Below are positions 30,823 through 52,022 of a stretch of 64,000 nt of DNA, in pieces. The translations under genes and the position numbers were made by a program. The notes under the pieces are model-generated. The model searched no databases. It saw nothing but the letters and a program-made list of their open reading frames with translations, and was not told the origin of the DNA. Positions within the stretch are counted from its first letter, which is position 1, and each line of letters starts with the position of its first letter. This DNA comes from Escherichia coli (lineage in GTDB: Bacteria > Pseudomonadota > Gammaproteobacteria > Enterobacterales > Enterobacteriaceae): the NCBI RefSeq assembly GCF_036507355.1, contig NZ_AP027877.1; one strand, 5' to 3'.

Positions 30823-30848
30823 CCTAGCGCATACAACCGGGCGGTGAT

Positions 30849-31810: not shown

Positions 31811-34474
31811 TCAGACTGGAAGACAGAATGTCGGATATTTACGGGCTATGATATCCATCAGTGACTTCATTCGCGGTGTTACAGAACTAAATTTCATTTG
31901 GGGTATTTTTGCTCTTACCGCATTTTTTACATCAGTCACCGTTACTGAATAGCCTTCTGACGTCAGCCATTCAGCAACCTCTTTACAGGAATAACTTTTT
32001 TTATCTTTCAGCATCAGCCCCCATTGGCACTGAGTCAGCGCCCGGAGAAATAGTCTGACTAAAATATCATCACTACGTTTGCTTCCGACTTTTAGTTTCA
32101 TATCAGAAAACACCGTCCGGCAATAGAGAAAATCACACCAGTCATCCCAGTCAGCCAGGGTCTTCAGTGTATGCGTTTGCCGCCAGTCGTCGAAAAGGGA
32201 GCGTTGCTGCAGAGCCTCTTCCATATTATCCCACGGGCGGGAAAACATCAGTAGATGCCCTTCATTCATGGCGGGCCGTACGGGCTGGCGTTTGAAATCG
32301 AATTCCAGATTAAGACGGATATCCTGTTCCCGGGATACCAGATCGCTTTCCGAGAGCCACATCTCACGCGTTGATATCAACGTACTTCGGGATAACGTCT
32401 GACCGGGTAAACGATTAAGGTAAAGATCTACCATATAGTCGTTATAGTCACTGCGTGGAATATCGGCAGGAGGTTTGACGCCAGCCCTGGCATGAACAAC
32501 AGGTTTTCCCTGAATCGCTTTATAGGTTAACTGCCCCCGGGTTTTCATGGCGATAAGCTGGCTGACCTCATGCTTACATGTCAACATTGATGAACCCGGA
32601 TCAACAATATCGCACAGCGACTGGAAGCGGGAAGACAGTGGACCGCTCATGTTTATCTTGTCAAGTGGGCAATTTGTCAAAAAACCATCGGTTGTGACGC
32701 TGACAACCGATGAATCAGAAGGCAAAGCATTCATGAGTTCCCCGACAACGGCGCGGATAAATCCCGTCACATGCGCAGCAAAGAATGGCTGAGTAACCGA
32801 TGATGGTGGGAGGGATCTGTTTAATCCACGGGCAGTATCAAAGGCGGTTTTGGCGCGAAGGCCCTGAGCAAGTTTGCCATAAAGCGAGTTGCCAATTTCT
32901 TTCCAGAATTTCTCCTCCAAAGAACCCTTAATATGGCGATTACGGTTCTCACGGACCTGTTGAACAAAGGGAAGAAACACCGATGTTGATTCGCTGTTAT
33001 GTGGGGAGGTGTCACAGATCCAGGGGACGATGATCCCATTATGGATCGTCATCTCTGCCCCGAGCGACAGAGCAAGTTCGATTTCAGGTGCCGTTGCCCA
33101 TGATTCGCCACTTAATGGAAAGAATAACCCATATTGATCGGTCCGAACCGGCAGGCTGGGATAGGGAACTGATTCCGGGAACCGAAATGTGACAAGCGCA
33201 AATCCCATCACATGCCCACAGTAATCGTCCGGATTTTTACTGAGGCGGATGTTTCCGTAATCGGGTATGAGGATATCTAATAGCCCGGTGGTATACGCTC
33301 CAGCCAGATCGTAGTCATACCAGTGATCAGACGGTGTAACCCCCATCATAAAACACTCATTGCGTCCGCCGTGGTAACAGTTGATCGGGAACGTTTCAAA
33401 CAACTCTCTTGAAGGAACACTGGCGGGGTTTTTAATCGTCCGGAATGCCTGTTTCTCCGTGAGCCAGAGTTCACGGGTTTTAATGTGTGTCCCAAGGCAG
33501 ACTTCAGGAGACATATTGTTTTCTTTAAGTGTTTTGGTGAACCGTGAAACTGCCATCGCCCCGATGGTGGCGGGGACACGATCAATCATCAGCTCCCGGG
33601 CGCAAAAATTGCGAACCTGTAAAGCATAACGAACCGCAATCTCGGCATCCCGCAGAGCATAGGCTTCAAACCCTGCTCTGTCGCCCAGAAGATATTCACG
33701 CATATTGGTTATGGAATAAGGTGCAGGAATGGTGAGTTTGGGAAGACCCAGTAATTCACCACATTCAGCCAGACCCATACCCCCGGGAGTGATAAGCAGT
33801 GTATCGATGAAAGCTACGTTACTGCAACGCGGAGGGGAAGTTCGTTTGTCAAACATTATCTGTTCAGTCTTTACGCGACGTTCCTGCTGTTCATCAAAAT
33901 CGATACCGTAACGATTTTTGAAGCTGCTGACAGTACCGCGTATTCCTTTCAGAAGAATTTTGTAGTCTGACCAGAAATTGGCAAAGGAGGCGATATCCGC
34001 ACGAATGAAATGCGCATATATATTAATAATACCGGGCCATTTTGTAATCACACCCGTTTCAAGAAGCGGTGTAATCGTTTGACAGAGAAATTCCTTAAAA
34101 GACAGTCGGGATTTTTTCTGTGAGTCAGGTGGATAGATAATGTTCGATATACCAGTGTTATCGGGTAAGACGACATAACTCTGATATGACAGAATATCAT
34201 TCTGTTGTGTTTCAGGATTGAAAACATATTCGGTATCAAAACCGATATGGAGTGTCAGGTCACTTGAAATAACAGATACTTTTTTTGATGCAGGTGGTAT
34301 CACAGGATAATCATCAAGCGTTTTAGGTCTTTTAAGATTGAGCGCTGGCTCTGAAGTCACGGACTGATACCCCGAGGCGGCAGCGAGGATATCCTGCAAA
34401 TTATGGCTCATAGTTAACTCCGAAAAAATGCCGGGAGCTGTGTCCCGGCATAAAGAATCAAGATTTAATAACAT
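31811..34474 (-). CDS. Family-B DNA polymerase of the primer-independent PolB (piPolB) type
   Basis: Exo I FDTEY, motif B KEIGNSLYG (KxxxNSxYG), motif C-like VTTDG, and KTRG in AMKTRGQLTY in place of the KxY motif; 887 aa. Confidence 0.85.
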   Translation of the reverse strand: MLLNLDSLCRDTAPGIFSELTMSHNLQDILAAASGYQSVTSEPALNLKRPKTLDDYPVIPPASKKVSVISSDLTLHIGFDTEYVFNPETQQNDILSYQSYVVLPDNTGISNIIYPPDSQKKSRLSFKEFLCQTITPLLETGVITKWPGIINIYAHFIRADIASFANFWSDYKILLKGIRGTVSSFKNRYGIDFDEQQERRVKTEQIMFDKRTSPPRCSNVAFIDTLLITPGGMGLAECGELLGLPKLTIPAPYSITNMREYLLGDRAGFEAYALRDAEIAVRYALQVRNFCARELMIDRVPATIGAMAVSRFTKTLKENNMSPEVCLGTHIKTRELWLTEKQAFRTIKNPASVPSRELFETFPINCYHGGRNECFMMGVTPSDHWYDYDLAGAYTTGLLDILIPDYGNIRLSKNPDDYCGHVMGFALVTFRFPESVPYPSLPVRTDQYGLFFPLSGESWATAPEIELALSLGAEMTIHNGIIVPWICDTSPHNSESTSVFLPFVQQVRENRNRHIKGSLEEKFWKEIGNSLYGKLAQGLRAKTAFDTARGLNRSLPPSSVTQPFFAAHVTGFIRAVVGELMNALPSDSSVVSVTTDGFLTNCPLDKINMSGPLSSRFQSLCDIVDPGSSMLTCKHEVSQLIAMKTRGQLTYKAIQGKPVVHARAGVKPPADIPRSDYNDYMVDLYLNRLPGQTLSRSTLISTREMWLSESDLVSREQDIRLNLEFDFKRQPVRPAMNEGHLLMFSRPWDNMEEALQQRSLFDDWRQTHTLKTLADWDDWCDFLYCRTVFSDMKLKVGSKRSDDILVRLFLRALTQCQWGLMLKDKKSYSCKEVAEWLTSEGYSVTVTDVKNAVRAKIPQMKFSSVTPRMKSLMDIIARKYPTFCLPV

Positions 34475-35096
34475 TTACTACAGATTTGAAAATATCGGTT
34501 TTGCGTGATTCATCATCTACATGGATAAAGGAAACGAGTTTCCTGCCTGCTTTAATCAGGATACCGCGTTGCGTCTTTTCCACAGACGGGGTAACGTGTG
34601 CAGATAACAGACAATGTTCATGTAAATGAAGAAACTTTTTTGAGGCGTAGCCGCCATGTAATCGGGCTTGAATGTCAAGATACATATCATCAAGAGAACC
34701 GGGTTCTCCTGATTCACTCAATACCGGATAACCCTTCTTATCAAAGAGGTTAAGGATAGATTTACTATCATGTTCGAACAGGGTAACACCGTAAATGTAT
34801 TTCATTCGAAAGGTGAGGGAATCGGTGGTGTAGACCTCCTCCTGACGATTGAAATTTTTGAGACGCCTGGCTAATTCATTAAAAACAGCACGAGCAGTAG
34901 CCGTGTCCTGCAGGGTGTAGGTATAAAGTACGAAGCCATCTGTGCCGATGAGCTTTACTAAGTTGTCCATAATCGTGATAGCGAGAACTAATGCAAAGGA
35001 TAGATATTTTTCATCGTTGTCTACAGCTGTGTTTGCTGCTTCAGGAAGAATGTTCAGTGCATTATTAGCATTATTTGCTGTGTTCTTAGTAACCAT
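34458..35096 (-). CDS. Hypothetical protein (212 aa) co-transcribed upstream of the polymerase
   Basis: Overlaps the polymerase start by 17 nt and the AlpA-like gene stop by 11 nt. Confidence 0.55.
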   Translation of the reverse strand: MVTKNTANNANNALNILPEAANTAVDNDEKYLSFALVLAITIMDNLVKLIGTDGFVLYTYTLQDTATARAVFNELARRLKNFNRQEEVYTTDSLTFRMKYIYGVTLFEHDSKSILNLFDKKGYPVLSESGEPGSLDDMYLDIQARLHGGYASKKFLHLHEHCLLSAHVTPSVEKTQRGILIKAGRKLVSFIHVDDESRKTDIFKSVVNVIKS

Positions 35097-35436: not shown

Positions 35437-36564
35437 TCATTTTGTGTCATAACTTTCTATGACCTGAGAAACCACTGCGTGTGATGTCGCTGCATTGTGA
35501 AAAGCGTAGCGACGGGTCGCCGTGAGTGAATGGTGATTTAGCAGATGGGAAGCGATTGCAATATCCCCGGTCGCCTGTAGTACCCGGGTGGCAAAGGTAC
35601 GGCGCAGGTCATGCATCCGCAGGTTATCAATGTTGGCATCCCGACAAATACGGGCAAAGGTTGCACGCGGATATGCCAGAGGGCGGGCATTGTCGGTTAG
35701 TTGTGGAAAAATGTAAGTTTTGCTGAGCATCAGGTCCTGCTGGCACTGGACAACTGCAATGGCTGGAAGTGCAAGTGGGCAGGTGAAAGGGTGTCCGGAC
35801 TTTGTATCAGGCAGTATGAGTTGATGCATATCCGGGTGCCAGTACTCCCATTTCAGGGTACATACCTCACCAATACGCATCCCCGTATAAAGAGCAAGCA
35901 ATATAGAATCAGCTGCCGGTGTTTGCAGCGCTGTTGCTGCGTTAATAAAGCGCGGGATTTCTGTCGCTGACAGTGTGCGATAGCGAATGTTATTTTCTTT
36001 CAGATAGCGGACATGTGACATCGGGGAATGTGTGATCCATCCAGCACGTACTGCCAGAGAGCATATTTTGGACAATATTGCGAGGATACGGTTTACTGTT
36101 GACGGACGTAATTTTTCCCGTAAGCCAGCAGCATATTGTTCTAGTTCTCCTGCCGTGATGTCGCGAAGTTGCCGCTTGCCCCAGAACGGGCGAACGTAGA
36201 GGTTGAGTTTTGACAACTCTGACTGAGGACTCTTTTTATACAACTGCAAATCCGGTAGCCACAGGTCATTGATGGCCTGTTCCACAGTGAATCGACGGGA
36301 CTGAACAGCAAGGCGATTTTTATCGGCAAGCAGGTTCATCACATGCTGACGGGCATCCTCAATGCAGAGATGAGGGAATTCACCCAGTGTTTCATATATA
36401 CGTTGATTTTTGATGGTGGCGCGAAAGGCCAGCGTGATCCGTTTTGGATATACCAGTGCACGCAGGTTTTGGCACTGAATATCACGGTATTCCTGACAAC
36501 CCGTGAGGGGATGTGGAAGTTGGTGAATTGATTTGTTGCTGAAACGCAGATCCAGAATAGGCAT
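35437..36564 (-). CDS. Second tyrosine recombinase / integrase
   Basis: Catalytic HDLRRTFATRV (HxxR) and TRRYAF (Tyr), plus core-binding-like N-terminal region. Confidence 0.85.
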   Translation of the reverse strand: MPILDLRFSNKSIHQLPHPLTGCQEYRDIQCQNLRALVYPKRITLAFRATIKNQRIYETLGEFPHLCIEDARQHVMNLLADKNRLAVQSRRFTVEQAINDLWLPDLQLYKKSPQSELSKLNLYVRPFWGKRQLRDITAGELEQYAAGLREKLRPSTVNRILAILSKICSLAVRAGWITHSPMSHVRYLKENNIRYRTLSATEIPRFINAATALQTPAADSILLALYTGMRIGEVCTLKWEYWHPDMHQLILPDTKSGHPFTCPLALPAIAVVQCQQDLMLSKTYIFPQLTDNARPLAYPRATFARICRDANIDNLRMHDLRRTFATRVLQATGDIAIASHLLNHHSLTATRRYAFHNAATSHAVVSQVIESYDTK

Positions 36565-36706: not shown

Positions 36707-37837
36707 CTACAGTTTCATGATCTTGTTCGCTATTTTTTCGAAGTAAACCTCATTCTTAAGAAGAGTGATATTGTTAGTTTGAACACCCAGACCACTGGAG
36801 GTTGACTGGAAGTTGAGTGAACCACTTATCACGGTGGACTTTCCTGATAAAAATGAAATCAACTCCTTGGAAGATGGTGCCCACTCAGGGTTTAAGAGTA
36901 ATGCAATGTAGATATATGTCTTACGAAGCAATTGTTCGATATCTTTTTTATACCCCGTAGTGTTTTGCTTACCTTTAATGCAAATTGATTTGATTATGAA
37001 CTCATCAGGGCTGGTTAAAGGCGTTTTAAACTTATTCAGTGATCCATCGTTATGAATGACTTCATAAGGCAGCATAGATAAAATGATCAATGCAATCATT
37101 TTAGGATGATAAAGGTAGTTATCACGAATGATTTTTCCTGCCTTCATTGTATTGAGTGTTGTTTGAATAAATACAAAAAGATATTCAGAGCAAAAGTAAC
37201 AAAACACAAGCCAGGATAGGTCAATGGCTGGAATGTTAATATCCTTAGGTAGTTTGTTTAGCCAGTATTCAGACTTCAAAAAGGTCCTGATTTCAACAGT
37301 ATATTCATGCATTTTTGCGCTGAAATCAAGCATTGCTACTTGACCTGATTGTTCCGTAACTGTGTGGTCTATAAATGTTAGTGTATTGCACATTTTATCC
37401 AGCGTGTTTTGAAAACAAGAAAGGAGTTCGGCATTATTATTACCATTAACCGCAGATGAAAGTTCAGTTGCAATAAATGCATCCAGTAGCATACAGATTT
37501 TTTTCGGAATGACATTTTTACGGGATTGCTGTGAATAGAAATATACTGCCAGTAAATTAAAGGCAGTGCACTCCTTTTTTAACCATTGTTCGAGCACTGG
37601 GACGTGCTGAAAAAAATTGATATGCTTAGCAGTAGATGCTGATGGAGATAGTACATGAAGAATATCTACAGCAGGCTTCATTTGCAATATTTGATCGGAT
37701 TCGGTAGTCGTCATTAGTTCCAGTAATTGCTGTTCAGAAAATAGTTTAGACAGGTGATCAATGTCTTTTTGGTATTGGTTAAGTTTTTTTAAATTCCCCG
37801 GTACACGGGTTACATTGTTTTTCATTTTCTCGAACAT
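36707..37837 (-). CDS. Hypothetical protein (376 aa), AT-rich orphan
   Basis: Long ORF in visibly AT-rich DNA; no motif recognised. Confidence 0.55.
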   Translation of the reverse strand: MFEKMKNNVTRVPGNLKKLNQYQKDIDHLSKLFSEQQLLELMTTTESDQILQMKPAVDILHVLSPSASTAKHINFFQHVPVLEQWLKKECTAFNLLAVYFYSQQSRKNVIPKKICMLLDAFIATELSSAVNGNNNAELLSCFQNTLDKMCNTLTFIDHTVTEQSGQVAMLDFSAKMHEYTVEIRTFLKSEYWLNKLPKDINIPAIDLSWLVFCYFCSEYLFVFIQTTLNTMKAGKIIRDNYLYHPKMIALIILSMLPYEVIHNDGSLNKFKTPLTSPDEFIIKSICIKGKQNTTGYKKDIEQLLRKTYIYIALLLNPEWAPSSKELISFLSGKSTVISGSLNFQSTSSGLGVQTNNITLLKNEVYFEKIANKIMKL

Positions 37838-38239: not shown

Positions 38240-39475
38240 TTAAAAGGAAATAAACAGAGCCTTTCGCCGATGAATCAATGTGCTGATTTCCCTCAAATCA
38301 GCCTCAATACTACCAACATCACCAAAGACTTCACCTCTAATCTCACTTCGATTTTTCATGAAATTGGTGCTTAATAAGCTTTCTTTTTTTAATGCCATTA
38401 ATTTTGGTTTTATATCGTTATAGAAATGCTTACGGCTTACCCTGATGCTATGAATCGAGTAGTAAACTGTTTTATACATCAAAAATATAAGTAACTGGCC
38501 GAGAAGATATTCTTTTTCAATGTATTTATATTGAGAGGATTTTTCGCGTTTCGCCAGGTAGAAAACATGAGGTGCGATGATGGTGGGGATAAAATCCAGT
38601 GCTGGAGAGGTTTTGGTTTTTTCTGTTTCTCTTCCGGATTGAAGATGTTGAAGTACAGAGTATACAATGCTTAAAATTATGGCGTTACTTATATTATTAA
38701 TTGCAGTTGGGTAAATATGCAGATTGCTTATCAATTCTGAAAGGCAAAGTAAAACACCAGTGATGTTGGGTTTTCTGCCGGAGATTGTGGTGCTGTTGAA
38801 AATGTGACGATTCTTACGACTTATATTGACAAGTTTATGAGTGCAGAACTCTATATGTTCGACGATTTTATCTTGACTATTTTTAATGTATTTTGAAATG
38901 TTAGTGATCCGGCCATTCAACGTTAGTTCATCAAGCAATATATCATTTTTAATATTGCGAATTTCATCGCAATGTTCACATTGAGAAACTATCTCATGTA
39001 ATACATAACTCGAAGTATTGCGTGACGATGCTGATATGTAATCTAAAATGGAATGCTCGACTTTGATTTTTTGTTTGTATTTTTTAATGCACTGTTTGAT
39101 TGTTTTTTGTAGAGTATTTGAGATGTGTTTTTTATATTCTTTTAGAAAATCTTGCTCTAAAAAGAGTGAGGAGAAGATCAACTGCTGGCGAGATAATTTA
39201 ATCTCAGGCTTGATCAATTTAATCCGAAAAACTCTTCCCTCCAACTCATAGCTGAACATGGAAGATAAGTCATAGTGGGGTGATAAATGTTCGAGTAACG
39301 ACATTCGTGTATTCATTAGCCGCTTGAATTTATGGTCAGCATACATAAGTGTTTTTTTTATTTGCTCATCATAAAGTGGGCCGATAGCGCAGTTGGCAAT
39401 ACTCATTCTATCCGGAGACCTCCAGTCAGCAGGGGAATCACATTGACGGTCATCATTACTATCAAAGGGCATCAA
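38240..39475 (-). CDS. Hypothetical protein (411 aa), AT-rich orphan
   Basis: Long ORF in visibly AT-rich DNA; no motif recognised. Confidence 0.55.
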   Translation of the reverse strand: MMPFDSNDDRQCDSPADWRSPDRMSIANCAIGPLYDEQIKKTLMYADHKFKRLMNTRMSLLEHLSPHYDLSSMFSYELEGRVFRIKLIKPEIKLSRQQLIFSSLFLEQDFLKEYKKHISNTLQKTIKQCIKKYKQKIKVEHSILDYISASSRNTSSYVLHEIVSQCEHCDEIRNIKNDILLDELTLNGRITNISKYIKNSQDKIVEHIEFCTHKLVNISRKNRHIFNSTTISGRKPNITGVLLCLSELISNLHIYPTAINNISNAIILSIVYSVLQHLQSGRETEKTKTSPALDFIPTIIAPHVFYLAKREKSSQYKYIEKEYLLGQLLIFLMYKTVYYSIHSIRVSRKHFYNDIKPKLMALKKESLLSTNFMKNRSEIRGEVFGDVGSIEADLREISTLIHRRKALFISF

Positions 39476-39778: not shown

Positions 39779-41302
39779 ATGAACGACAAAATCAGTCAGG
39801 ACACGATCAACAAAGCCCTGTGGGCCGCGTGTGATACGTTCCGTGGCACCATCAGTGCTGATACCTATAAAGACTTTATCCTTACCATGCTGTTCCTCAA
39901 GTACATTTCAGATGTCTGGCAGGATCACTACGACGAATATAAAGTGCAATATGGCGATGCGCCGGAACTGATTGAAGCGATGATGGCGAACGAGCGCTTC
40001 GTGTTGCCGAAAAGCGCCAGTTTCTATGCGTTGTACGAGCGACGTCATGAGCCGGGCAACGGTGAGCGTATCGATCAGGCGCTGCATGCGATTGAAGAAG
40101 CCAACGGCACCAAACTGAAAGATGCCGGGAAAAGTGTCTTCCAGGATATTTCGTTTAACACTGACCGTCTGGGCGAAGAAAAACAGAAGAACACCATCCT
40201 GCGTCAGTTGCTGGAAGACTTTGCCGGTGAAGATCTTAACCTGAAGCCAAGCCGTGTCGGTACGCTGGACGTTATCGGTAATGCTTACGAATATCTGATC
40301 AAAAACTTTGCTGCCAGCGGTGGGCAGAAAGCCGGGGAATTCTATACCCCGCCGGAAGTTTCGGACCTGATTGCTGAACTGCTCGATCCGCAACCGGGTG
40401 ATACCATCTGCGATCCGGCCTGTGGTTCGGGTTCATTGTTGATGAAGTGTGGGCGTAAAATTGTCTCCGGGCATGATAGTCGTAACTATGCATTGTTCGG
40501 TCAGGAAGCGATCGGTTCTACGTGGTCGCTGGCGAAAATGAATATGTTCCTGCACGGGGAAGACAACCATAAAATCGAGTGGGGCGATACCATTCGTAAC
40601 CCGAAGCTGCTCGATAAAAATGGCGACCTGATGCTGTTTGATATCGTGACCGCTAACCCACCGTTCAGCCTCGATAAGTGGGGCCATGACGAGGCCGAGA
40701 ACGATAAGTTTGGCCGTTTTCGTCGCGGTGTACCGCCGAAGACTAAAGGAGATTACGCTTTTATCTCGCATATGATCGAAACCCTGAAACCGGGAACTGG
40801 CCGTATGGGCGTAGTTGTGCCACACGGTGTGCTTTTCCGTGGCTCCAGCGAAGGTAAAATTCGCCAGAAACTGATCGACGAAAATTTGCTGGATGCGGTA
40901 ATTGGTCTGCCGGAAAAACTGTTCTACGGTACGGGGATTCCGGCTGCGATTCTGATTTTTAAAAAGCAGAAAGTTGATGACAAGGTGCTGTTTATCGATG
41001 CCAGCCGTGAATTCAAGGCAGGTAAAAACCAGAACCAGCTTAGCGAAGAAAACATTAAGAAAATCGTCAAGACCTACCGTGATGGCGATAACGTCGAGAA
41101 ATACGCCTATCTTGCCAGCCTGAAGGAAATTCAGGACAACGACTATAATCTCAATATCCCGCGCTATGTCGATACCTTTGAAGAAGAGGATGAGATTGAC
41201 CTGCTGGCGGTGCGAGCAGAACGCGAGCAACTGAAGGCGGAATTGGCGAAGCTGGAAACGGAGATGGCTGGATATTTGAAGGAGTTGGGTTATGGCTCGT
41301 GA
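39779..41302 (+). CDS. hsdM: Type I restriction-modification methyltransferase subunit HsdM
   Basis: N6-adenine MTase motifs (DPACGSGS, TANPPFS), 507 aa. Confidence 0.92.
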   Translation: MNDKISQDTINKALWAACDTFRGTISADTYKDFILTMLFLKYISDVWQDHYDEYKVQYGDAPELIEAMMANERFVLPKSASFYALYERRHEPGNGERIDQALHAIEEANGTKLKDAGKSVFQDISFNTDRLGEEKQKNTILRQLLEDFAGEDLNLKPSRVGTLDVIGNAYEYLIKNFAASGGQKAGEFYTPPEVSDLIAELLDPQPGDTICDPACGSGSLLMKCGRKIVSGHDSRNYALFGQEAIGSTWSLAKMNMFLHGEDNHKIEWGDTIRNPKLLDKNGDLMLFDIVTANPPFSLDKWGHDEAENDKFGRFRRGVPPKTKGDYAFISHMIETLKPGTGRMGVVVPHGVLFRGSSEGKIRQKLIDENLLDAVIGLPEKLFYGTGIPAAILIFKKQKVDDKVLFIDASREFKAGKNQNQLSEENIKKIVKTYRDGDNVEKYAYLASLKEIQDNDYNLNIPRYVDTFEEEDEIDLLAVRAEREQLKAELAKLETEMAGYLKELGYGS

Positions 41303-42566
41303 TTCGCTTTACCCAGTGAGCGTTAAAGCTGGAAAACCGATCCTTGGAATGCTACCTACAGGATGGCAAAAGTTATCATTAGAAAAGTGCTTAAATATAG
41401 AGGCAAGAAAGGCATATATACAAGATAATCAAGAGTATGACTTAGTTACAGTAAAGCGCTCCAGAGGTGGCGTAATAAGACGTGAGCATCTTAAAGGAAA
41501 AGATATCTCCGTAAAAAGTCAATTCTATATTAAAGAAGGCGACTTTCTCATATCAAAACGACAAATTGTGCACGGTGCTTGCGGTCTTGTACCTAAAGAA
41601 CTTTCTGGCTCAATTGTATCGAATGAATATTGTGTGCTTACAGGGAAGTCCGGTTTTTATCTTCCTTATATGGAATTTCTATCGGAGTCTCTATATTTCC
41701 AGCAAACCTGCTTCCACTCTAGCATTGGTGTGCACATAGAGAAAATGATTTTTAAGTTAGATAGTTGGTTTAAGTGGCCATTTAATATCCCCCCACTGTC
41801 TGAACAAAAGAGAATCGTTAAAATCCTGTCAACCTGGGATAAGGCGATTTCGGTGACGGAAAAGCTTCTCACCAACAGTCAGCAGCAGAAAAAAGCCCTG
41901 ATGCAGCAATTGCTTACCGGGAAAAAACGCTTGCTGGATGAGAGGGGGGTGAGGTTTAGTGGGGAGTGGAAGAGAGTAAAACTGGGTGCGATAGCCGATA
42001 TGAACAGTGGAGGTACTCCGAAATCAACGGTTGAAGAGTATTATGGCGGGAATATCCCATGGGTATCTATTTCTGATATGACATCTAATGGAAAGTGGAT
42101 TGCTACAACTGAAAAATATCTGACTGAATTAGGATTGAACAGTTCATCCGCAAGAATATATCCAAAAAACTCGGTTCTTTATGCTATGTATGCTTCTATA
42201 GGTGAATGCAGCATTGCTGCTGTAAATTTAACATCTTCGCAGGCAATCTTGGGTATTAGACCAAAAGATTGTTTAAATTATGAGTTTTTATATTTCTATC
42301 TTACATCATTAAAAGAAAAAATAAAACTGCAAGGCCAGCAAGGTACACAGTCCAACCTAAACGCCGGAATGGTTAAAGAGTTTGAACTAGACTTACCCAG
42401 TATAAGAGAACAACAAAAAATCGCCGCCGTCCTGTCCGTCGCCGATGCCGAAATCTCCACGCTGGAGAAAAAACTCGCCTGCCTGAGAGATGAGAAAAAA
42501 GCCCTGATGCAACAGCTACTGACTGGCAAACGTCGTGTTAAGGTCGATGAGGCGGTTGCCGAATGA
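41292..42566 (+). CDS. hsdS: Type I R-M specificity subunit HsdS
   Basis: Two target-recognition domains separated by repeated conserved helices (KKALMQQLLTGKKRL / KKALMQQLLTGKRRV); overlaps hsdM. Confidence 0.9.
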   Translation: MARDSLYPVSVKAGKPILGMLPTGWQKLSLEKCLNIEARKAYIQDNQEYDLVTVKRSRGGVIRREHLKGKDISVKSQFYIKEGDFLISKRQIVHGACGLVPKELSGSIVSNEYCVLTGKSGFYLPYMEFLSESLYFQQTCFHSSIGVHIEKMIFKLDSWFKWPFNIPPLSEQKRIVKILSTWDKAISVTEKLLTNSQQQKKALMQQLLTGKKRLLDERGVRFSGEWKRVKLGAIADMNSGGTPKSTVEEYYGGNIPWVSISDMTSNGKWIATTEKYLTELGLNSSSARIYPKNSVLYAMYASIGECSIAAVNLTSSQAILGIRPKDCLNYEFLYFYLTSLKEKIKLQGQQGTQSNLNAGMVKEFELDLPSIREQQKIAAVLSVADAEISTLEKKLACLRDEKKALMQQLLTGKRRVKVDEAVAE

Positions 42567-43246
42567 AACTGACGAAAAGCGGTCCACTGACTGACCGGGA
42601 AATCGACTGGCTGGAAGAAATATTAATGAAGTATGGAATGGATGATTCTGTACTCTGTTTCTCTGAGCTGGATGGATTGCTGACGGCGATTTTATCAGGT
42701 CCAAATATGGTTTCACCCAATATCTGGCTGAGTGCTATTTGGGGAGGAGGCGATTATCATCCGAAATGGTCATCTGAGAGAGAGATGGAGCGTTTTGTCA
42801 GTCTGTGTTTTCAGCATATGAACGATATCGCTGGTTGCCTTTATGACGCCCCTGAACTGTTTGAGCCGATTTTCAATGAGCGTGAGGTAAAGGGGGAAAA
42901 ATATACCATTGTGGAAGAGTGGTGTTTTGGTTATATGAAAGGAAAGTCACTGGATGACTGGTCTGGTCTTCCCGGTGAGTTACGGCCTTCTCTGGAAGTG
43001 ATCGCTCTTCATGGCGTGGAGAAGAATTTTCCTGTACTTGAGAAAATGACCAGAGAGCAGTTTGAGAAAAGTATTTCCCTTATTAAGCCTGCTGCACTGG
43101 CACTTTATCAGTACTGGTTGTCAGTGAGAATGTCAGAGGCATCATCCCGGCCTGTTCCAGTGAAGGGGGCAGAAAACATGCCCGGGCGAAATGACCCGTG
43201 TCCGTGTGGCAGCGGTAAAAAATTTAAGAAGTGCTGTCTGCATTGA
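42563..43246 (+). CDS. YecA-like UPF0149 protein with C-terminal SEC-C metal-binding motif, nested in the hsd operon
   Basis: Aligns along its length with chromosomal YecA at 52141-52806; ends [20 protein letters not shown]; ATGA overlap with the hsdS stop. Confidence 0.8.
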   Translation: MKLTKSGPLTDREIDWLEEILMKYGMDDSVLCFSELDGLLTAILSGPNMVSPNIWLSAIWGGGDYHPKWSSEREMERFVSLCFQHMNDIAGCLYDAPELFEPIFNEREVKGEKYTIVEEWCFGYMKGKSLDDWSGLPGELRPSLEVIALHGVEKNFPVLEKMTREQFEKSISLIKPAALALYQYWLSVRMSEASSRPVPVKGAENMPGRNDPCPCGSGKKFKKCCLH

Positions 43247-43295: not shown

Positions 43296-46200
43296 ATGAT
43301 GAACCAGACGTACACGCCTAAATTCCAGGAAGAATACAGCGCCAAAATTCCGGCACTGACGTTACTGACCAGCCTCGGCTGGACGTTTTTATCTCCGAAA
43401 CAGATTATGGATTACCGGGGCTATAAACAGGATGAGGTGGTGCTGCGTCCGGTTCTGCGTGAAGAGCTGTCGAAGCGTTCCTTTATGGCGGGTGGCAAAA
43501 CCTGCCAGTTATCGGAAAAAGCACTGGATAACCTGATATCACAGGTCTGTTCTCCGGCGCTGAATGAAGGGCTGCTCAAAGCCAATGAACGGATGTATAA
43601 CCATCTGCTCTACGGTATCGCCGTCACGGAGTTTGTCGATGGCAAGAAGGTGAACCCCACCATTGCGCTGATCGACTGGGAACATCCGGAAAGTAACCAG
43701 TTCCATTTTACCGAAGAATTTACGGTATTGCGGTCAGGCGGTGTCGAAACCCGCAGGCCGGATATTGTGTGTTTTGTGAATGGTATCCCGCTGGCCGTCA
43801 TTGAAGCGAAAAGCCCGGCGGGTCACGGCAAGAAAGGGCCAACCATTGACGAAGGGATATCCCAGAGTATCCGCAATCAGCTCAACGACGAAATCCCGCA
43901 GCTGTTTGCTTACAGCCAGATATTACTGTCGATTAACGGGCATGACGGGCGCTACGGTACCTGTCATACACCAATGAAATTCTGGGCGGCATGGCGCGAA
44001 GAAGATATTACTTACGCGCAGATGTATGCGCTGCGCAACCATAAGTTATCGACTGAACAAATTCATGCGTTGTTTGATGATCGTCCTTCAGTCGATCTCA
44101 AATGGTATCAACAGTTAATCGATGGGGGGGAACTGGCAGTCAGCGGGCAGGATAAGCTGCTCATCAGTCTGCTTTCACCGGAACGTCTGCTGGAGATGAC
44201 CCGCTTCTTCACCCTGTTTGATAAAAAAACCGGAAAAATTGTTGCCCGCTATCAGCAGGTGTTCGGTATTAAAAGACTGCTGGAACGCATCAGTACCCGC
44301 AGACCAGACGGGGGCAGGGAAGGTGGGGTGATCTGGCATACCACGGGGTCAGGTAAATCTTACACCATGGTATTCCTCAGCAAGGCGCTGATTCTTCATG
44401 ACAGCCTGAAGCAGTGTCGTATTGTGGTGGTGACGGACCGCGTGGACCTTGAAGGGCAGCTCAGCGGCACTTTTGTCTCTGGTGGCGAACTGGCAGGGAA
44501 GGATGATAAGGCCAAAGCGATGGCAACCTCAGGTCAGAAGCTGGCACAGCAGATTGGCTCTGGTAAAGAACGTATAATCTTTACCCTTATCCAGAAATTT
44601 AACTCAGCGACAAAATTGCCTGAATGCGTCAACACCAGCCCCGACATCATCGTTCTGATTGATGAAGGACACCGTAGCCAGGGTGGTGAGAACCATGTGC
44701 GAATGAAACTGGCACTGCCGAACGCCGCCTTTGTGGCATTTACTGGTACGCCATTGCTAAAAGAAGATAAGACCACCAATAAATTCGGGCCGATTGTCCA
44801 CGCTTATACCATGCAGCGAGCGGTAGAAGATAAAGCCGTTACACCTTTGCTGTATGAAGAACGTATTCCCGACCTTGAGGTTAACGATCGGGCAATAGAT
44901 GCCTGGTTTGATCGTATTACCGATGGGTTAAGCGAAGCGCAAAAAGCCGACCTTAAGCGTAAATATGCCCGTAAAGGTGAGGTTTATAGTGCAGATGATC
45001 GCATCCGTCTGATCGCACTCGATATCGCCACGCACTTCTCGAAGAATATTGATGAGGGGCTGAAAGGCCAGCTTGCCTGCGACAGCAAGATTTCCGCCAT
45101 CAAATATAAAAAGTATCTTGATGAAGCCGGGTTGTTTGAGTCAGCAGTAGTTATCAGCCCGCCGGATACCCGGGAAGGGAATACCGAAGTGGATGAAAGC
45201 AAACTGCCGGAAGTGACGAAATGGTGGAAGGATAATGTCGGCACGCAGGATGAGTCTGTGTATACCCGTAATATCATCAGTCGTTTCGATACCGATGAGA
45301 AGCTCAAATTGCTGATAGTCGTTGATAAACTGCTCACCGGGTTTGATGAGCCGAAGAATACCGTGCTGTATATCGACAAGCCGCTTAAGTCCCACAACCT
45401 TATCCAGGCGATTGCGCGGGTGAACCGACTGCATCCACTAAAAAAGTTCGGTCTGCTGATTGATTATCGCGGTATTCTGGCTGAGCTGGACACGACTATC
45501 GGCAAATATCAGGACCTCGCCTCCCGAACTCAGGGCGGATACGATATCAAAGATATTGACGGGCTGTACAGCGCCATGAGCTCTGAATACAAGCGCCTGC
45601 CGCATCTGTATAACCAGCTGTGGGCCATATTTGCCGGTGTTAAAAACAAAAATGATACTGAGCAGTTACGTGCGGTACTGGTGCCTAAAATGGAAGAACG
45701 TGACGGAGAGATGGTCGATATCCATCAGAAAACCCGTGATGATTTCTTCGAGGCGTTAACGGCCTTTGCCGGATGCCTGAAAGTGGCACTGCAGTCCGCT
45801 ACCTTCTTCACCGACAAGAGCTTTACGGAACAAGACCGAAATCTCTATAAAGAAACCGTAAAACAGATGTCCAGCCTGCGCCAGTGGGCGATGCAGGTAA
45901 GTGGAGAGCAGGTCAATTATGACGACTACGCTGAGCAGGTGAAAAAACTGCTGGATAAGCATGTCACCGGCGTTGAGGTTCGTGAACCGGATGGCGTGTA
46001 TGAAGTCGGTAAAATGGGCAAGAGCGAAAAGCCCGAAGAGTGGGACAACAATAAAACCCGCAATGAAACCGACATCATTAAAACCCGCGTGACGAAGATG
46101 ATTGAGCAGGAATTGCGTGATGACCCGTATGCTCAGGAGGCATTTTCAAAACTCCTGCGTATGGCTATCGAAGAGGCTGAAAAACTGTTTGACCATCCGC

Positions 46201-46583
46201 TGAAACAGTACCTTTTGTTCCGTGAATTTGAAGAACAGGTTGAAGCCCGTAAGCTCAGCGATATCCCGGATGCACTGGCGGTAAACAAGCATGCTCAGGC
46301 GTATTACGGTGTATTTAAAAAAGAGCTACCTGAGGTTTTTGCGGTAAACGACGTTCAGGTGCAGGATAAGTGGACCAAGCTGGCTTTTGAAGTGGACAAC
46401 ATTATCGTCAAAGCGGTGGCAGAAAACTCCCTGAACCCCCAGGACATTGAGAAAGTCGTTAAGACAAGTCTGCTACCACTGCTGTTTACGGCCTGCCGGG
46501 AAATTGGTGCCGGAATGAATCAGGTTAACCGTATTGTGGAAACCATCATCCAGATACTGCGCGTTGGTTTGATGAAATCATGA
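43296..46583 (+). CDS. hsdR: Type I restriction endonuclease subunit HsdR
   Basis: 1095 aa; Walker A TGSGKSYT and DEAH-like box DEGHRS. Confidence 0.92.
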   Translation: MMNQTYTPKFQEEYSAKIPALTLLTSLGWTFLSPKQIMDYRGYKQDEVVLRPVLREELSKRSFMAGGKTCQLSEKALDNLISQVCSPALNEGLLKANERMYNHLLYGIAVTEFVDGKKVNPTIALIDWEHPESNQFHFTEEFTVLRSGGVETRRPDIVCFVNGIPLAVIEAKSPAGHGKKGPTIDEGISQSIRNQLNDEIPQLFAYSQILLSINGHDGRYGTCHTPMKFWAAWREEDITYAQMYALRNHKLSTEQIHALFDDRPSVDLKWYQQLIDGGELAVSGQDKLLISLLSPERLLEMTRFFTLFDKKTGKIVARYQQVFGIKRLLERISTRRPDGGREGGVIWHTTGSGKSYTMVFLSKALILHDSLKQCRIVVVTDRVDLEGQLSGTFVSGGELAGKDDKAKAMATSGQKLAQQIGSGKERIIFTLIQKFNSATKLPECVNTSPDIIVLIDEGHRSQGGENHVRMKLALPNAAFVAFTGTPLLKEDKTTNKFGPIVHAYTMQRAVEDKAVTPLLYEERIPDLEVNDRAIDAWFDRITDGLSEAQKADLKRKYARKGEVYSADDRIRLIALDIATHFSKNIDEGLKGQLACDSKISAIKYKKYLDEAGLFESAVVISPPDTREGNTEVDESKLPEVTKWWKDNVGTQDESVYTRNIISRFDTDEKLKLLIVVDKLLTGFDEPKNTVLYIDKPLKSHNLIQAIARVNRLHPLKKFGLLIDYRGILAELDTTIGKYQDLASRTQGGYDIKDIDGLYSAMSSEYKRLPHLYNQLWAIFAGVKNKNDTEQLRAVLVPKMEERDGEMVDIHQKTRDDFFEALTAFAGCLKVALQSATFFTDKSFTEQDRNLYKETVKQMSSLRQWAMQVSGEQVNYDDYAEQVKKLLDKHVTGVEVREPDGVYEVGKMGKSEKPEEWDNNKTRNETDIIKTRVTKMIEQELRDDPYAQEAFSKLLRMAIEEAEKLFDHPLKQYLLFREFEEQVEARKLSDIPDALAVNKHAQAYYGVFKKELPEVFAVNDVQVQDKWTKLAFEVDNIIVKAVAENSLNPQDIEKVVKTSLLPLLFTACREIGAGMNQVNRIVETIIQILRVGLMKS

Positions 46584-47335
46584 GTGAAAAAGAATCGCCA
46601 TCAATGAAAGCGTTACGCATTGTCTATGGTGATGATGTCATCACCGTACAGTGTGTTCCGCGTCAGGTCGTAAAGGGCAGGGTGCTCATCAAGGTTTATC
46701 CGGACTGCCGGGTTGTGGCCTCTGTACCGCCTGAAACACCGGAGCACGAGGTATTGTCTGCGCTGAAAAAAAGAGGGCGCTGGATATACCAGCAACTGCG
46801 TGATTTCAGGGAGCAACAGACACACATTGTTCCGCGTCAGTATGTCAGCGGAGAAAGCCATTATTATCTCGGTAAGCAATATCAGTTGAAAGTGACAGAA
46901 GACGCTACTGTGCCGCAACGAGTGAAAATGTTGCGTGGGCGTCTGGAAGTGACTGTCAGACACAAATCGGCAGAAAAGATTAAAGCCTTGCTGGCTGAAT
47001 GGTATCGGGAACGTGCCAGAGATGTTTTTCAGCGCAGGCTTGATTTACTGATTCCGCAGACCCTTTGGGTCAGTGAGCGTCCTCCGATACGTCTGCGGGC
47101 GATGCAAACGCAATGGGGCAACTGTTCAGCAAAAGGCTGTCTGACCCTGAATCCATGGCTGGTTAAGGCATCCTCAGAATGTATCGATTATGTTTTGCTA
47201 CATGAGTTATGCCATGTGGCTGAGCACAACCACAGCGAGGAGTTTTACCGTCTGATGGGGCAGGTTATGCCTGGGTGGGAAAAGGTCAAGAAACGACTGG
47301 ATGGGATGGCTGGGATGTTGTTGGCTGATATGTAA
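46580..47335 (+). CDS. HExxH zinc metallopeptidase (M48/YgjP-like) after hsdR
   Basis: HELCH motif; ATGA overlap with the hsdR stop. Confidence 0.7.
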   Translation: MSEKESPSMKALRIVYGDDVITVQCVPRQVVKGRVLIKVYPDCRVVASVPPETPEHEVLSALKKRGRWIYQQLRDFREQQTHIVPRQYVSGESHYYLGKQYQLKVTEDATVPQRVKMLRGRLEVTVRHKSAEKIKALLAEWYRERARDVFQRRLDLLIPQTLWVSERPPIRLRAMQTQWGNCSAKGCLTLNPWLVKASSECIDYVLLHELCHVAEHNHSEEFYRLMGQVMPGWEKVKKRLDGMAGMLLADM

Positions 47336-47393
47336 CTTATCAATATGAGTTCTTAAGGGTTTGGTCAGTCTCGTTAATGTAGGGAGTATAATA

Positions 47394-49232
47394 ATGAGTA
47401 AGTTAGATAATAAAATTGAAGCACGCCATCGTAATTTGTTTGATGTTCTAAATGCGCAAAAATATACCGTTGATTACTTTCAGCGCGAGTATAGCTGGGG
47501 TGAGAAACATATTGAAGAGTTGGTTACAGACTTAACATCTGCGTTTCTCAATGAATACACCGTCGGTGATTCTCGGGAGCAGGGTGAAAACTACAATAAT
47601 TATTACTTAGGACCATTTGTTGTGAGTAGTAAAGATGGGAAACGGAGTATTATTGATGGTCAGCAACGACTGACTTCATTAACTTTATTTCTAATTTACC
47701 TCCATAACCTTCAGAAAGAACTTAAATATGAAGAGAAAATAGAATCAATGATTTTCTCCGAGTTACGTGGCAGCAAATCATTCAATATAGTAGTTGAAGA
47801 CAGAATACCTTGCATGGAAGCATTGTTTAATTTTGGTAGCTATAGTTTAGTTGATGGGGATGATGAGTCAACCCATAACATGGTGGAGAGATATCAGAAT
47901 ATCACAGATGCTTTTCCTGATGAATTAAAAGGTCAGGCTTTTCCTTTTTTTATCGACTGGCTTAAGTATAACGTTATTATGGTTGAGATAGTTGCCTATT
48001 CAGATGAAAACGCATATACCATCTTTGAGACTATGAATGACCGAGGATTAAATCTTACTCCGTCCGAAATGCTTAAAGGTTTTTTACTTTCACGCTTTCA
48101 TCAGGGAGATAAACGCCAAAAGGTAAATGAACTCTGGAAAAAAGCGATGATGGATTTAAAAAACTATGATAAAGATGAAGACCAACGTTTTTTCCAGTCA
48201 TGGTTGCGTGCTCAATATGCTGATACAATACGCCCGGGTAAAGCTGGTTCAAAAAATGAAGACTTTGAAAAAATAGGTACGCGTTTTCATAGCTGGGTTA
48301 GAGATAATCTTCAGGCGGTGGGATTGGACCCAGATAATGGTGAGACATTCGAACGATTTATACAAAAAAACTTTTTGTTTTATTTGAATGCCTATACACA
48401 AATACTGAATGCTGAGAGAGCATTAACGCACCAACTGGAATATGTATTTTATATCCACCATTGGGGTATTGCACCTACTTTAAGTTTCCCTTTGATGTTG
48501 GCTCCATTAAATGTAGGTGACAGTCCTGATGCTGTGATAGCCAAAATAAACCTGGTGGCGCGCTATATTGAAACATTTGTTGTTCGTCGTTCTGTTAATT
48601 TCCGAAAATTCTCTGCCAGTTCTATTCGTTACACAATGTACAGTCTTGTTAAAGAAATTCGTGGTAAAAGTATTGAAGAATTAAAAGATTTGTTATCTAA
48701 GAAGTTATCCGAAATGCCAGATACTTTTGCAGGAATGGAAGAGTTTCGTCTCCATGGTCAAAACTATCGTTTTGTGAAGTTTTTGCTTTCTCGTATAACT
48801 GCGTGGGTTGAGCAGCAAGCCGGAATGAGTACAACCTTCATTACATATTATCAGCCAGAACACGGTAAGCCATTTGAAGTCGAGCATATTTGGGCCGATA
48901 AATATGAACGTTACTCTGATGAGTTTGAACAAGAGCACGAATTTAACAATTACAGAAATCGCTTAGGTGATTTGGTTTTATTACCTAGAGGCTCAAACCA
49001 GTCATATGGTGATTTGTGTTACGATCAAAAGCAACCTCATTACATCAAAGAGAATCTCCTGGCTAAATCGTTATGCCCATTGGCATATATGAATAACCCT
49101 AATTTCAATCAGTTGAGAAATGTATTCGGATTGCCTTTCAAACCACATGATTCATTTAAAAAACAAGATGTCGATGAACGACAGTCTTTGTATAAAATAA
49201 TTTGTGAGAATATTTGGGACCATAATTTATAG
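47394..49232 (+). CDS. GmrSD-like DUF262/DUF1524 nuclease (type IV restriction-like)
   Basis: N-terminal DGQQR hallmark (IIDGQQRLTSL) and C-terminal His-Me-finger-like FEVEHIWAD; GGGAG RBS before ATG 47394. Confidence 0.7.
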   Translation: MSKLDNKIEARHRNLFDVLNAQKYTVDYFQREYSWGEKHIEELVTDLTSAFLNEYTVGDSREQGENYNNYYLGPFVVSSKDGKRSIIDGQQRLTSLTLFLIYLHNLQKELKYEEKIESMIFSELRGSKSFNIVVEDRIPCMEALFNFGSYSLVDGDDESTHNMVERYQNITDAFPDELKGQAFPFFIDWLKYNVIMVEIVAYSDENAYTIFETMNDRGLNLTPSEMLKGFLLSRFHQGDKRQKVNELWKKAMMDLKNYDKDEDQRFFQSWLRAQYADTIRPGKAGSKNEDFEKIGTRFHSWVRDNLQAVGLDPDNGETFERFIQKNFLFYLNAYTQILNAERALTHQLEYVFYIHHWGIAPTLSFPLMLAPLNVGDSPDAVIAKINLVARYIETFVVRRSVNFRKFSASSIRYTMYSLVKEIRGKSIEELKDLLSKKLSEMPDTFAGMEEFRLHGQNYRFVKFLLSRITAWVEQQAGMSTTFITYYQPEHGKPFEVEHIWADKYERYSDEFEQEHEFNNYRNRLGDLVLLPRGSNQSYGDLCYDQKQPHYIKENLLAKSLCPLAYMNNPNFNQLRNVFGLPFKPHDSFKKQDVDERQSLYKIICENIWDHNL

Positions 49233-49290: not shown

Positions 49291-50418
49291 TTGCGTTCTG
49301 AAACGTTTTTTGTCAAATTTATTGAACAACTGAAAGGTATTTCGGTTGAGGATGATGTTGAATTCAATTTTTTTGAATTGGGTGGTTCCGGATATCTCGA
49401 AAATCCAACTACGGATTTGATGGCTTTGTTTATGGGAGCCCAGAAAATGGTGCCGCCATGGTTGCTCAAAGCATTGCTATGTTGCCTGGATGATTCCCTC
49501 GATGTTGATGAAATTGATTTCACTTCTCTGGAGCTAATGAGAGAGGCCCGAACAGAAGATGGGAAATATATTGATATTCTTATCAGACATGATGAATTCA
49601 TTATAGGTATTGAGCATAAAGTTCTGGCTGATACATATAATCCTTTTCCCAGCTATGTAAGTCTCATTGATAGTTACGGCGGCAACAATCAAAAACTATT
49701 TCGCTGTATATTAAAGCCTGACGGTAACAGCGCTAAAGGCGTAGACGGTTGGCAACTGATCAATTATTCACTGCTGCTGGAAACCGCCATTCGACGTCTG
49801 GGGTTGGAGATGATGAATCAAGAGTTCAGCAAGTGGACTGTTTTTTATCAGGAGTTTTTAAGTCATCTTAAAAAATTGAGTGAGGTTAGTATGGATAAGG
49901 TATCTGATAAAAATGTGGAGTTTGTCACTGAAAATTTCTCAGCTTTGATAAAATCGGTTCAACTGCTGGAAATGTACCAAAATGCTATCACCGAGGAAGC
50001 TAAATCGGTTGTCTCAGAGGTATTGCCTGATATTCATATTGCAACAGGTATTAATAACTGGAAGGGTTACTATAAAGCAATTCATCTGATGCCGGGATGC
50101 TGGGGGCAAGGTAAAACAGGAATTACGTTAGTTTATCGCCCTTCAGAGGATGGACGAGATGAAGCTGAGTTCTACGTATATGGATGGATACATTCAGATG
50201 ATTACCCTGAAGTTAATGCACTAAAAGAAGAAATAAGAGTTGCTTTAAGTGCTGGAGATTTCATTCCAACAGCTAGCCCTGAGGACTATGAAGTATCAAT
50301 TACTGGGAAGGGGAAAGTGCTTGAACTGAGTTTTTGGGGGAATACGAGAAGCAAAAAAGATGCACTGGTTCTTCTTAAGGATATGACTAAGTGGATGGAC
50401 TCAAAAATAAGAACATAA
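49291..50418 (+). CDS. PD-(D/E)xK-type nuclease-fold protein (TTG start)
   Basis: Candidate catalytic core ...GKYIDILIRHDEFIIGIEHKV (D...ExK); AAGGAGG RBS. Confidence 0.55.
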   Translation: MRSETFFVKFIEQLKGISVEDDVEFNFFELGGSGYLENPTTDLMALFMGAQKMVPPWLLKALLCCLDDSLDVDEIDFTSLELMREARTEDGKYIDILIRHDEFIIGIEHKVLADTYNPFPSYVSLIDSYGGNNQKLFRCILKPDGNSAKGVDGWQLINYSLLLETAIRRLGLEMMNQEFSKWTVFYQEFLSHLKKLSEVSMDKVSDKNVEFVTENFSALIKSVQLLEMYQNAITEEAKSVVSEVLPDIHIATGINNWKGYYKAIHLMPGCWGQGKTGITLVYRPSEDGRDEAEFYVYGWIHSDDYPEVNALKEEIRVALSAGDFIPTASPEDYEVSITGKGKVLELSFWGNTRSKKDALVLLKDMTKWMDSKIRT

Positions 50419-50522: not shown

Positions 50523-51704
50523 ATGATTTATCAGTGTGATACTTGCAGTAGAACGACTTTTGAGGTTAATTGTCCCTGGTGTAGTGGAGTTTCGCCTGTA
50601 AAAACGTCTGCATGGGGTTCAGCATCATCGACCGCACAAGCAATAGGCATACAACGTATGACACCATTGAATCCATCGTTTTATCCCGAATTTCAGTATC
50701 GTTCAAAGGGTGTTCTAAAAGATCTATTTGGGAAAAAGAAAGAGCAAACTCAGCTTAATCAATTGCTTGAAAATGTTCTCAAAAAATACTCCAGTTTAAA
50801 AGATCCATATTTTACTAACTTCATTTACACTTCCAGATTCTCACATAATAATAAATCGGAAGCAGATTACTCAACAGATAATGGTACATACTCCGAATTA
50901 CAACTTTTCCGTGAGGTGTTGGTCAGAAAAGGGTTCAATGAGCTTGAGCAGTTACCTGAGCTATTAGATAAATTACTCCTTACCACGTCATTTAACGCTC
51001 TTTATTATGGTTTCGCTAAGGAAGTTAAACGGCATATTAAATCCACACTTACTGAATCCTTGAAGTCATGGATTGAGGAAGCGGGTACCACTTTTAGGGC
51101 AGATCTTTCATTGTTTCTATTCTATATATGGAGCAATAAAATAGAGTTCTCATCAGTAGAGTTCAATGAAAAAGCGGAGGCTACGCCTGGTGTTCCTTTA
51201 GTTTCATTTGATGAAGTTAAAAAATACTTAGCTGTGTGCGAACATATTTATTTTGATATTCTGGTTGATAGATTAGCTACACGGCTCGAACATTTTAACC
51301 CTAACAAATTCGTCACCATGTATTTAGTTGATGCAATGGACGGTTTCCAGTTTGAAGATTTCCTTGTGGAAGTATTCCAGACTATGGGCTATGACGTCAA
51401 AGAAACCAAGAGAACGCAAGATCAGGGGGCAGATCTCTTCGTCACTCGATTTGGTAAGGATATGGTTATTCAGGCGAAAAATTATTCTGGTTCTGTAGGT
51501 AACTCGGCGGTGCAGCAGGTGATCTCTGCTAAAACATTCTATGGTTGTGATGAGGCGATGGTTGTGACTAATTCCTACTTCACACGCTCTGCCAAAGAAT
51601 TAGCTGAATCAGCCTTGGTACGTTTGATCGACAGGGATGAACTGCAAAAGTATCTGGATGATTACAATCAGAAGATAATTGAAGATTTCCAGTCAAACTC
51701 GTAA
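50523..51704 (+). CDS. Zinc-ribbon protein with C-terminal Mrr-like restriction endonuclease domain
   Basis: N-terminal CDTCS...CPWC; C-terminal ...GADLFVTRFGKDMVIQAKNYSGSVG... resembles the Mrr catalytic domain. Confidence 0.6.
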   Translation: MIYQCDTCSRTTFEVNCPWCSGVSPVKTSAWGSASSTAQAIGIQRMTPLNPSFYPEFQYRSKGVLKDLFGKKKEQTQLNQLLENVLKKYSSLKDPYFTNFIYTSRFSHNNKSEADYSTDNGTYSELQLFREVLVRKGFNELEQLPELLDKLLLTTSFNALYYGFAKEVKRHIKSTLTESLKSWIEEAGTTFRADLSLFLFYIWSNKIEFSSVEFNEKAEATPGVPLVSFDEVKKYLAVCEHIYFDILVDRLATRLEHFNPNKFVTMYLVDAMDGFQFEDFLVEVFQTMGYDVKETKRTQDQGADLFVTRFGKDMVIQAKNYSGSVGNSAVQQVISAKTFYGCDEAMVVTNSYFTRSAKELAESALVRLIDRDELQKYLDDYNQKIIEDFQSNS

Positions 51705-51889: not shown

Positions 51890-52022
51890 ATTTAAAATCC
51901 CTCGGCGTTCGCGCTGTGCGGGTTCAAGTCCCGCTCCGGGTACCATGGGAAAGATAAGAATAAAATCAAAGCAATAAGCAGTGTCGTGAAACCACCTTCG
52001 GGTGGTTTTTTTGTGCCTGCAA
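51890..52022 (+). repeat. Right direct repeat (attR): copy of tRNA-Leu 3' half plus terminator
   Basis: Matches 25675-25805 with a few mismatches and a 2-bp indel; begins inside the anticodon arm, so no complete tRNA here. Confidence 0.85.

Follow-up and report, generated by a model that had tools for sequence, protein, structure and literature searches.

Direct repeats encoding the ends of two conserved helices in hsdS of an Escherichia coli type I restriction-modification operon, and reassortment of target-recognition domains among its alleles

The hsd operon and its genomic island

The window, that is, the whole 64-kb stretch of DNA analysed here, belongs to the E. coli chromosome (17000-31000, with the uvrC, dcyD and tcy genes, matches it at 99.1% identity) and carries a type I restriction-modification operon on an island of about 26 kb beside a tRNA-Leu gene (25644-25730). 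The genes of the operon and those that follow it are listed below, where TRD stands for target-recognition domain and D1 and D2 for the conserved helical regions.

39779-41302, + strand: hsdM, N6-adenine methyltransferase subunit (TIGR00497, 283 bits against a cut-off of 243)
41292-42566, + strand: hsdS, 424 aa, in the order TRD1-D1-TRD2-D2 (PF01420 in two stretches, E 2.8e-41; homologous to PDB 1YF2)
42563-43246, + strand: YecA-like gene (UPF0149 and SEC-C), between hsdS and hsdR
43296-46583, + strand: hsdR, restriction/translocase subunit (TIGR00348, 461 bits against a cut-off of 285)
46580-47335, + strand: YgjP-like M48 metallopeptidase gene, overlapping the hsdR stop codon by 4 nt
47361-49232: GmrSD-like DUF262 gene, downstream of the YgjP-like gene

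hsdM and hsdS share 11 nt, the first gene ending within the start of the second. That this gene is hsdS, as had been proposed from the letters, is borne out by its two PF01420 Methylase_S stretches, its homology to PDB 1YF2 and its hsdM and hsdR neighbours; since hsdM, the Methylase_S domains and hsdR occur together, the gene is hsdS of a type I restriction-modification operon. To direct methylation and restriction of a bipartite target is the defining role of HsdS, and that role is predicted for the present protein from its sequence. The YecA-like protein (NCBIfam PRK10396, 357 bits) is 57% identical to the product of the chromosomal yecA (52141-52806), which sits just outside the right end of the island; strain WCHEC050613 (L011) is without the YecA-like gene between hsdS and hsdR, and in L001, L004, L010 and L014 an extra "cold shock domain" gene is found between the YecA-like gene and hsdR.

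At either end of the island is a direct repeat of about 130 nt (25675-25805 and 51890-52022, 97-98% identical) that takes in the 3' end of tRNA-Leu(taa) and the terminator-like stem behind it; the island lies between a Gly-Cys-Leu tRNA cluster (25428-25730) and the chromosomal yecA/tyrP. It contains a P4-type integrase gene (26760-27989), a second integrase gene (35437-36564) and the whole hsd/defence cluster, and further defence-type genes continue to 51704, namely those of a PD-(D/E)XK protein (49291-50418) and an Mrr-type endonuclease (50523-51704). In addition, four ORFs on the - strand (31811-34474, 34458-35096, 36707-37837 and 38240-39475, of 887, 212, 376 and 411 aa, respectively) are without a Pfam hit at E<=0.001; their counterparts in E. 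coli RM14721 are annotated only as "DNA polymerase" for the 887-aa ORF and as hypothetical proteins for the two beside hsdM. A literature search found no report of a leuZ island with a type I system.

The repeat pair and the conserved helices of HsdS

A repeat search of hsdS gave a single family of direct repeats, a pair of 38 nt with 82% identity whose spacing of 606 nt equals 202 codons, so that the copies are in frame.

41887-41924, + strand: repeat copy 1; codes for (Q)KKALMQQLLTGK at the 3' end of the central conserved region, helix D1
42493-42530, + strand: repeat copy 2; codes for (E)KKALMQQLLTGK at the 3' end of the distal conserved region, helix D2

The exact core of the repeat is 19 nt (41887-41905 = 42493-42511, blastn-short). 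When hsdS was shuffled, a repeat of 17 nt was found in 0/1000 codon shuffles and 0/1000 base shuffles (maxima 16 and 14 nt, respectively), so the repeat is not due to chance. Both copies are inside one ORF and encode KKALMQQLLTGK[K/R]R after each TRD, the peptides being KKALMQQLLTGKKR (aa 200-213) in copy 1 and KKALMQQLLTGKRR (aa 402-415) in copy 2. Taken as a coding repeat of 42 nt, the two copies are identical in the first 19 nt and differ at 11 positions, all in the next 23 nt; eight of the differences are synonymous and the other three make up the K-to-R codon. At the protein level the repeat is longer, aa 161-212 matching aa 363-414 with 24/52 residues identical (46%, E 3e-12).

The original prediction had described two repeats of about 40 bp that encode the same helix motif, and these are confirmed in the form of the 38-nt repeat with its 82% identity and 19-nt exact core. 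Of the intervals given for them, 41892-41930 is exact for KALMQQLLTGKKR, but 42497-42538 is off by 1-2 nt, the codons of KALMQQLLTGKRR being 42498-42536. It had further placed each repeat after a TRD and assigned it to a conserved helix, and this holds, each repeat encoding the end of such a helix and the alignment with 1YF2 spanning both helices.

1YF2, the S subunit of M. jannaschii, is the closest solved structure (E 2.4e-75), and both halves of HsdS as well as both helices are aligned with it; moreover, it has the same motif at both equivalent sites, KKGLMHKLLT and KKKIMELLLTGKVRVK. The present system is like type I HsdS proteins and 1YF2 in having two TRDs with a helix after each and ...LM..LLTG... 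ending both helices, hsdS being situated here between hsdM and hsdR. The two conserved helical regions, central and C-terminal, resemble one another and are conserved across 14 E. coli alleles, and proline-rich motifs precede them, NIPPLSEQ before D1 and LDLPSIREQ before D2. S subunits are known to have the layout S1-D1-S2-D2, in which a proline-rich motif precedes each helical "dimerization" domain, and the two helices form an antiparallel coiled coil, while each half of the subunit contacts one of two identical M subunits (PMC3874165). Because the same layout and the proline-rich motifs are found here, the repeat corresponds to the C-terminal end of D1 and of D2. In no essential respect does the gene depart from these known S subunits, though compared with the type IA systems described in that review (PMC3874165), D1 and D2 are more alike here, with 46% identity over 52 aa and the last 13 aa identical. 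Furthermore, hsdS here starts directly with TRD1, whereas type IB subunits have the order D2-S1-D1-S2 (PMC3874165).

Reassortment of TRDs among alleles

Pairwise blastn of the 14 E. coli alleles against the window divides hsdS into four blocks. Ahead of them, homology among alleles continues through the 3' end of hsdM to 41295, just past the hsdS start codon.

41296-41787, + strand: TRD1 variable block; allele homology ends at 41295 and returns at about 41788
41788-41969, + strand: central conserved region, starting with NIPPLSEQ; 88-94% identical among alleles with unrelated TRDs
41970-42406, + strand: TRD2 variable block; no homology between alleles
42407-42566, + strand: distal conserved region, helix D2 and the tail RRVKVDEAVAE; homology runs into the downstream gene

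Matches to the operon occur in 655 of the 5,426 complete E. coli genomes searched (403 at >=80% coverage) and in 354 plasmids, mostly conjugative Klebsiella plasmids. In the same 5,426 genomes, the TRD1 of the window (41330-41860) is present in full in 126 and its TRD2 (41940-42440) in only 25. The original prediction had suggested that hsdS alleles of related strains be compared for recombinant TRD combinations, and the alleles proved not to be invariant: when TRDs were clustered at >=90% identity in 134 alleles, consisting of the best 120 of 8,000 protein hits, a sample biased to alleles with one TRD in common with the window, and the 14 fetched alleles, 29 TRD types were found, and the TRD1 type of the window pairs with 11 TRD2 types while its TRD2 type pairs with 7 TRD1 types.

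Within the conserved blocks the SNP haplotypes are mosaic. The left part of the central region tracks the TRD1 type, a variant at 41867/41871/41876 is common to alleles with the same TRD2 and different TRD1, and two alleles, L007 and L012, share a divergent haplotype of the distal region (42497-42562) despite their different TRD2s. Perfect runs between alleles in the central region reach about 90 nt, for example 41821-41912 against L010. These comparisons indicate that the crossover zone for TRD reassortment is the central conserved region (41788-41969), and that TRD1 is replaced with the hsdM 3' end as left homology arm and TRD2 with the distal region and the YecA-like gene as right homology arm. 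The breakpoints come from 14 alleles in which the most conserved core (41856-41943) has few informative sites, and these alleles do not tell whether crossovers are concentrated in the 38-nt repeat or spare it.

The relation of the two copies to one another was also compared across the 14 alleles. Copy 1 is identical to copy 1 of other alleles at 38-42 of 42 nt and copy 2 to copy 2 at 34-42 of 42, while copy 1 and copy 2 agree at only 30-35 of 42, nearly all of the differences being synonymous. The two copies do not evolve in concert, and the pattern agrees with selection on the protein, not homogenisation of the DNA. The proposal that the repeats are substrates for shuffling is partly supported: shuffling of TRDs is real and goes through the conserved regions, but a role of the repeat pair as mutual partners is unsupported.

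By far the most probable explanation is that the repeat is the ordinary pair of conserved-region helices of a type I HsdS, and that TRDs are swapped from allele to allele via the conserved blocks and not from repeat to repeat. According to this explanation, the repeats are the 3' ends of two conserved regions, D1 (aa ~161-213) and D2 (aa ~363-415), which would form two long helices that pair in antiparallel fashion and fix the distance between the TRDs. Each half of the pseudo-symmetric HsdS would meet one of two identical HsdM subunits, so the same motif, KKALMQQLLTGK, would be kept at both places by selection at the protein level while synonymous sites drift freely; the coiled-coil and HsdM-contact roles of the helices are proposed from homology to solved HsdS structures and from the literature. 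TRD1 and TRD2 would be replaced independently, giving altered specificity within the gene family, by homologous recombination, presumably of the RecA type, between different alleles delivered by horizontal transfer, to which the presence of the same operon on the E. coli leuZ island and on conjugative Klebsiella plasmids points. Crossovers would fall in the 3' end of hsdM, in the central region of about 180 nt, and in the distal region and the downstream gene, and each repeat copy would recombine as a piece of its own block with the same block of another allele, not with its partner. The repeat itself, the blocks, the reassortment and the lack of repeat-to-repeat products are direct observations.

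Specificity is expected to differ among the alleles, judging from the identity of their TRDs. The hsd system is common on the E. coli leuZ island and on conjugative Klebsiella plasmids in many TRD combinations, and therefore strains whose operons look alike may differ in the targets that they methylate and restrict; this variety bears on barriers to plasmid transfer and on the interpretation of methylomes. The conserved helices of HsdS and the reassortment of TRDs through them are a textbook feature, known since the 1980s and treated in reviews. The repeat accordingly carries little weight as a discovery, and its practical value is descriptive.

Alternative explanations and comparison with known systems

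TRD exchange is established as a source of new specificities, as in StySQ (PMC3874165). One alternative is that the internal repeats recombine with one another, or with the non-equivalent copy of another allele, so as to move, delete or duplicate TRDs, and that this is the main route to new specificities, which we consider improbable. Domain movement is known from S genes that have flanking repeats of 27-53 bp, and S genes of the form x-TRD1-y-x-TRD2-y move TRDs between positions and give one-TRD and three-TRD derivatives (PMC3077401). The repeat of hsdS resembles the "y" repeat that likewise follows each TRD in the DoMo genes of H. pylori, S. pyogenes and M. agalactiae (29-53 bp there and 38 nt here; PMC3077401), and since the copies are in frame, 606 nt apart and share the 19-nt exact core, a crossover would leave an intact one-TRD protein of 222 aa. 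Unlike the DoMo genes, hsdS has only the "y" pair and, by the repeat search of the gene, no "x" pair ahead of the TRDs, its repeat is only 82% identical, and neither a TRD at both positions nor one-TRD or three-TRD derivatives were found; Furuta et al. did not see domain movement in genes without the repeats (PMC3077401). Among the 134 alleles (best 120 of 8,000 and 14 fetched), each of the 29 TRD clusters is confined to a single position, and the best identity across positions is 37.5%. The exact identity of the copies is 11-20 nt depending on the allele, shorter than the ~23-27 bp at which efficient RecA-dependent exchange in E. coli is usually put. Moreover, junctions of the expected products gave no single-piece match in the 5,426 genomes or the plasmids. 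With a synthetic deletion junction of 80 nt (41864-41903 joined to 42510-42549), 15 of 15 full-coverage hits in the 5,426 E. coli genomes were in two pieces spanning 626-638 nt, which means that they are normal alleles, and no hit at 80% coverage was obtained in 72,556 plasmids; with the reciprocal junction for duplication of TRD2 (42470-42509 joined to 41904-41943), all of the 60 listed among 61 full-coverage hits were in two pieces. The predicted 222-aa product was sought in a set of 5.8 billion proteins, and no such form was found among close relatives. One imperfect repeat pair without a second pair thus seems not to support domain movement or TRD loss, and this negative result for a single pair agrees with the repeat-dependence proposed for H. 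pylori.

A narrower form of this alternative takes the 19-nt core as a site of rare, RecA-independent deletion that would convert the two-TRD hsdS into a gene for a 222-aa homodimer with a palindromic target, a latent switch of specificity; it is very improbable. In that case the 222-aa product could consist of TRD1, a hybrid helix and the tail of D2, and its target of two TRD1 half-sites. Half-size S subunits of type IC systems act as homodimers, and a D1/D2 crossover here would yield a half-size S subunit similar to that of EcoDXXI deltaC. For repeat-to-repeat recombination in general there is also the protein P0211, a complete single-TRD HsdS of 226 aa with a TRD1-like domain (61% identical) and an LMQQLLTGK ending, encoded on two independent metagenome contigs (L016, 1474-2154, and L017, 1452-2132). 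In the fragment P0218 a D1-like helix is continued by a D2-type tail. In principle, then, a one-TRD derivative is plausible, although nothing ties P0211 or P0218 to repeat-mediated deletion in this lineage. P0211 is flanked by RhuM-family and DUF4917 genes, an unusual operon context for a half-size S subunit. Two other candidates were rejected: P0145 (212 aa, 247 members, from Logan assemblies), considered as a truncated allele, ends in ...ALMRQIGRAHV and is an apparent assembly artefact, its IGRAHV tail being presumably the translated Illumina adapter AGATCGGAAGAGCACACGTC, and P0210 was set aside because its assembly context is fragmented and probably error-rich.

It might also be supposed that occasional short gene conversion between the copies keeps them alike, that is, concerted evolution at the DNA level, and the uneven distribution of differences, none in the first 19 nt against 11 in the next 23 nt, would agree with it, as would L007, L012 and L011, in which the distal copy resembles the central one somewhat more (32-34/42) and has the central codons CAGCAA...ACCGGGAAA. 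Across the 14 alleles, nevertheless, each copy resembles the equivalent copy of other alleles much more than the other copy of its own gene, and the copies group strictly by position. Moreover, the 5' stretch shared exactly by the two copies of the window has changed in L007 and L012, where the exact run is only 11 nt, and with few synonymous states such similarities may arise by chance; we hold this explanation to be very doubtful. The distal haplotype of L007 and L012 with CAGCAA...ACCGGGAAA could be a trace of short intragenic conversion or an older lineage. Hardly credible is a phase-variable shufflon or inverton of hsdS of the kind found in S. pneumoniae SpnD39III and M. pulmonis, with the repeats as recombinase sites. 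Such systems do use repeats in the conserved regions of hsdS, and two tyrosine recombinase genes are present in the window (26760-27989 and 35437-36564), but these integrases belong to the island at tRNA-Leu, the nearer one being ~4.7 kb from hsdS; the repeats are direct, not inverted, and tblastn and blastn found no second copy or fragment of hsdS and no inverted segment in the 64-kb window. In many E. coli strains the first 249 nt of TRD1 are also found, with 100% identity, at a second locus of the chromosome, and such orphan TRD1 fragments were considered as silent cassettes; the one inspected, L003 (E. coli ECO13, NZ_CP090324.1, 3121-4672), consists of an hsdM/hsdS relic truncated by an IS, with another hsdR on one side and two DUF262 genes on the other, and is a decayed second copy of the same system, not a cassette.

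Allele-to-allele exchange through the conserved blocks, the explanation preferred here, is in line with what is known of other type I systems. Natural and laboratory cases of reassortment, namely the derivation of StySQ and StySJ from StySP and StySB, Sau1 of S. aureus, and the group 1 S genes of H. pylori, likewise present many TRD pairings with the position of each TRD kept, and in the StySQ-type, Sau1 and group 1 cases the crossovers are in the central region and the flanks, as here (PMC3874165, PMC3077401). Unlike those systems, the present one belongs to another enzyme family, being neither IA nor IC by sequence, and resides on the E. coli leuZ island and on conjugative Klebsiella plasmids. 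Assignment to type IA was rejected, with 39 bits against a cut-off of 662 for the specificity-subunit equivalog NF007278 and 99 bits over a partial region for the HsdM of EcoKI. Type IC was likewise rejected: the HsdM of EcoR124II is distant (237 bits), the match of HsdR is confined to the motor domain (114 bits), and TAEL repeats are absent. In the type IC systems EcoR124I, EcoR124II and EcoDXXI, the specificity changes with the number of 12-bp TAEL units repeated in tandem in D1; no tandem repeats of this type were found in the central region of the present hsdS.

Finally, TRD2 (41961-42524, aa 224-411) is unusually similar to TRD1 of the archaeal 1YF2 (155.8 bits over 188 aa), and this likeness to the M. 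jannaschii domain hints at a common half-site specificity across domains of life.
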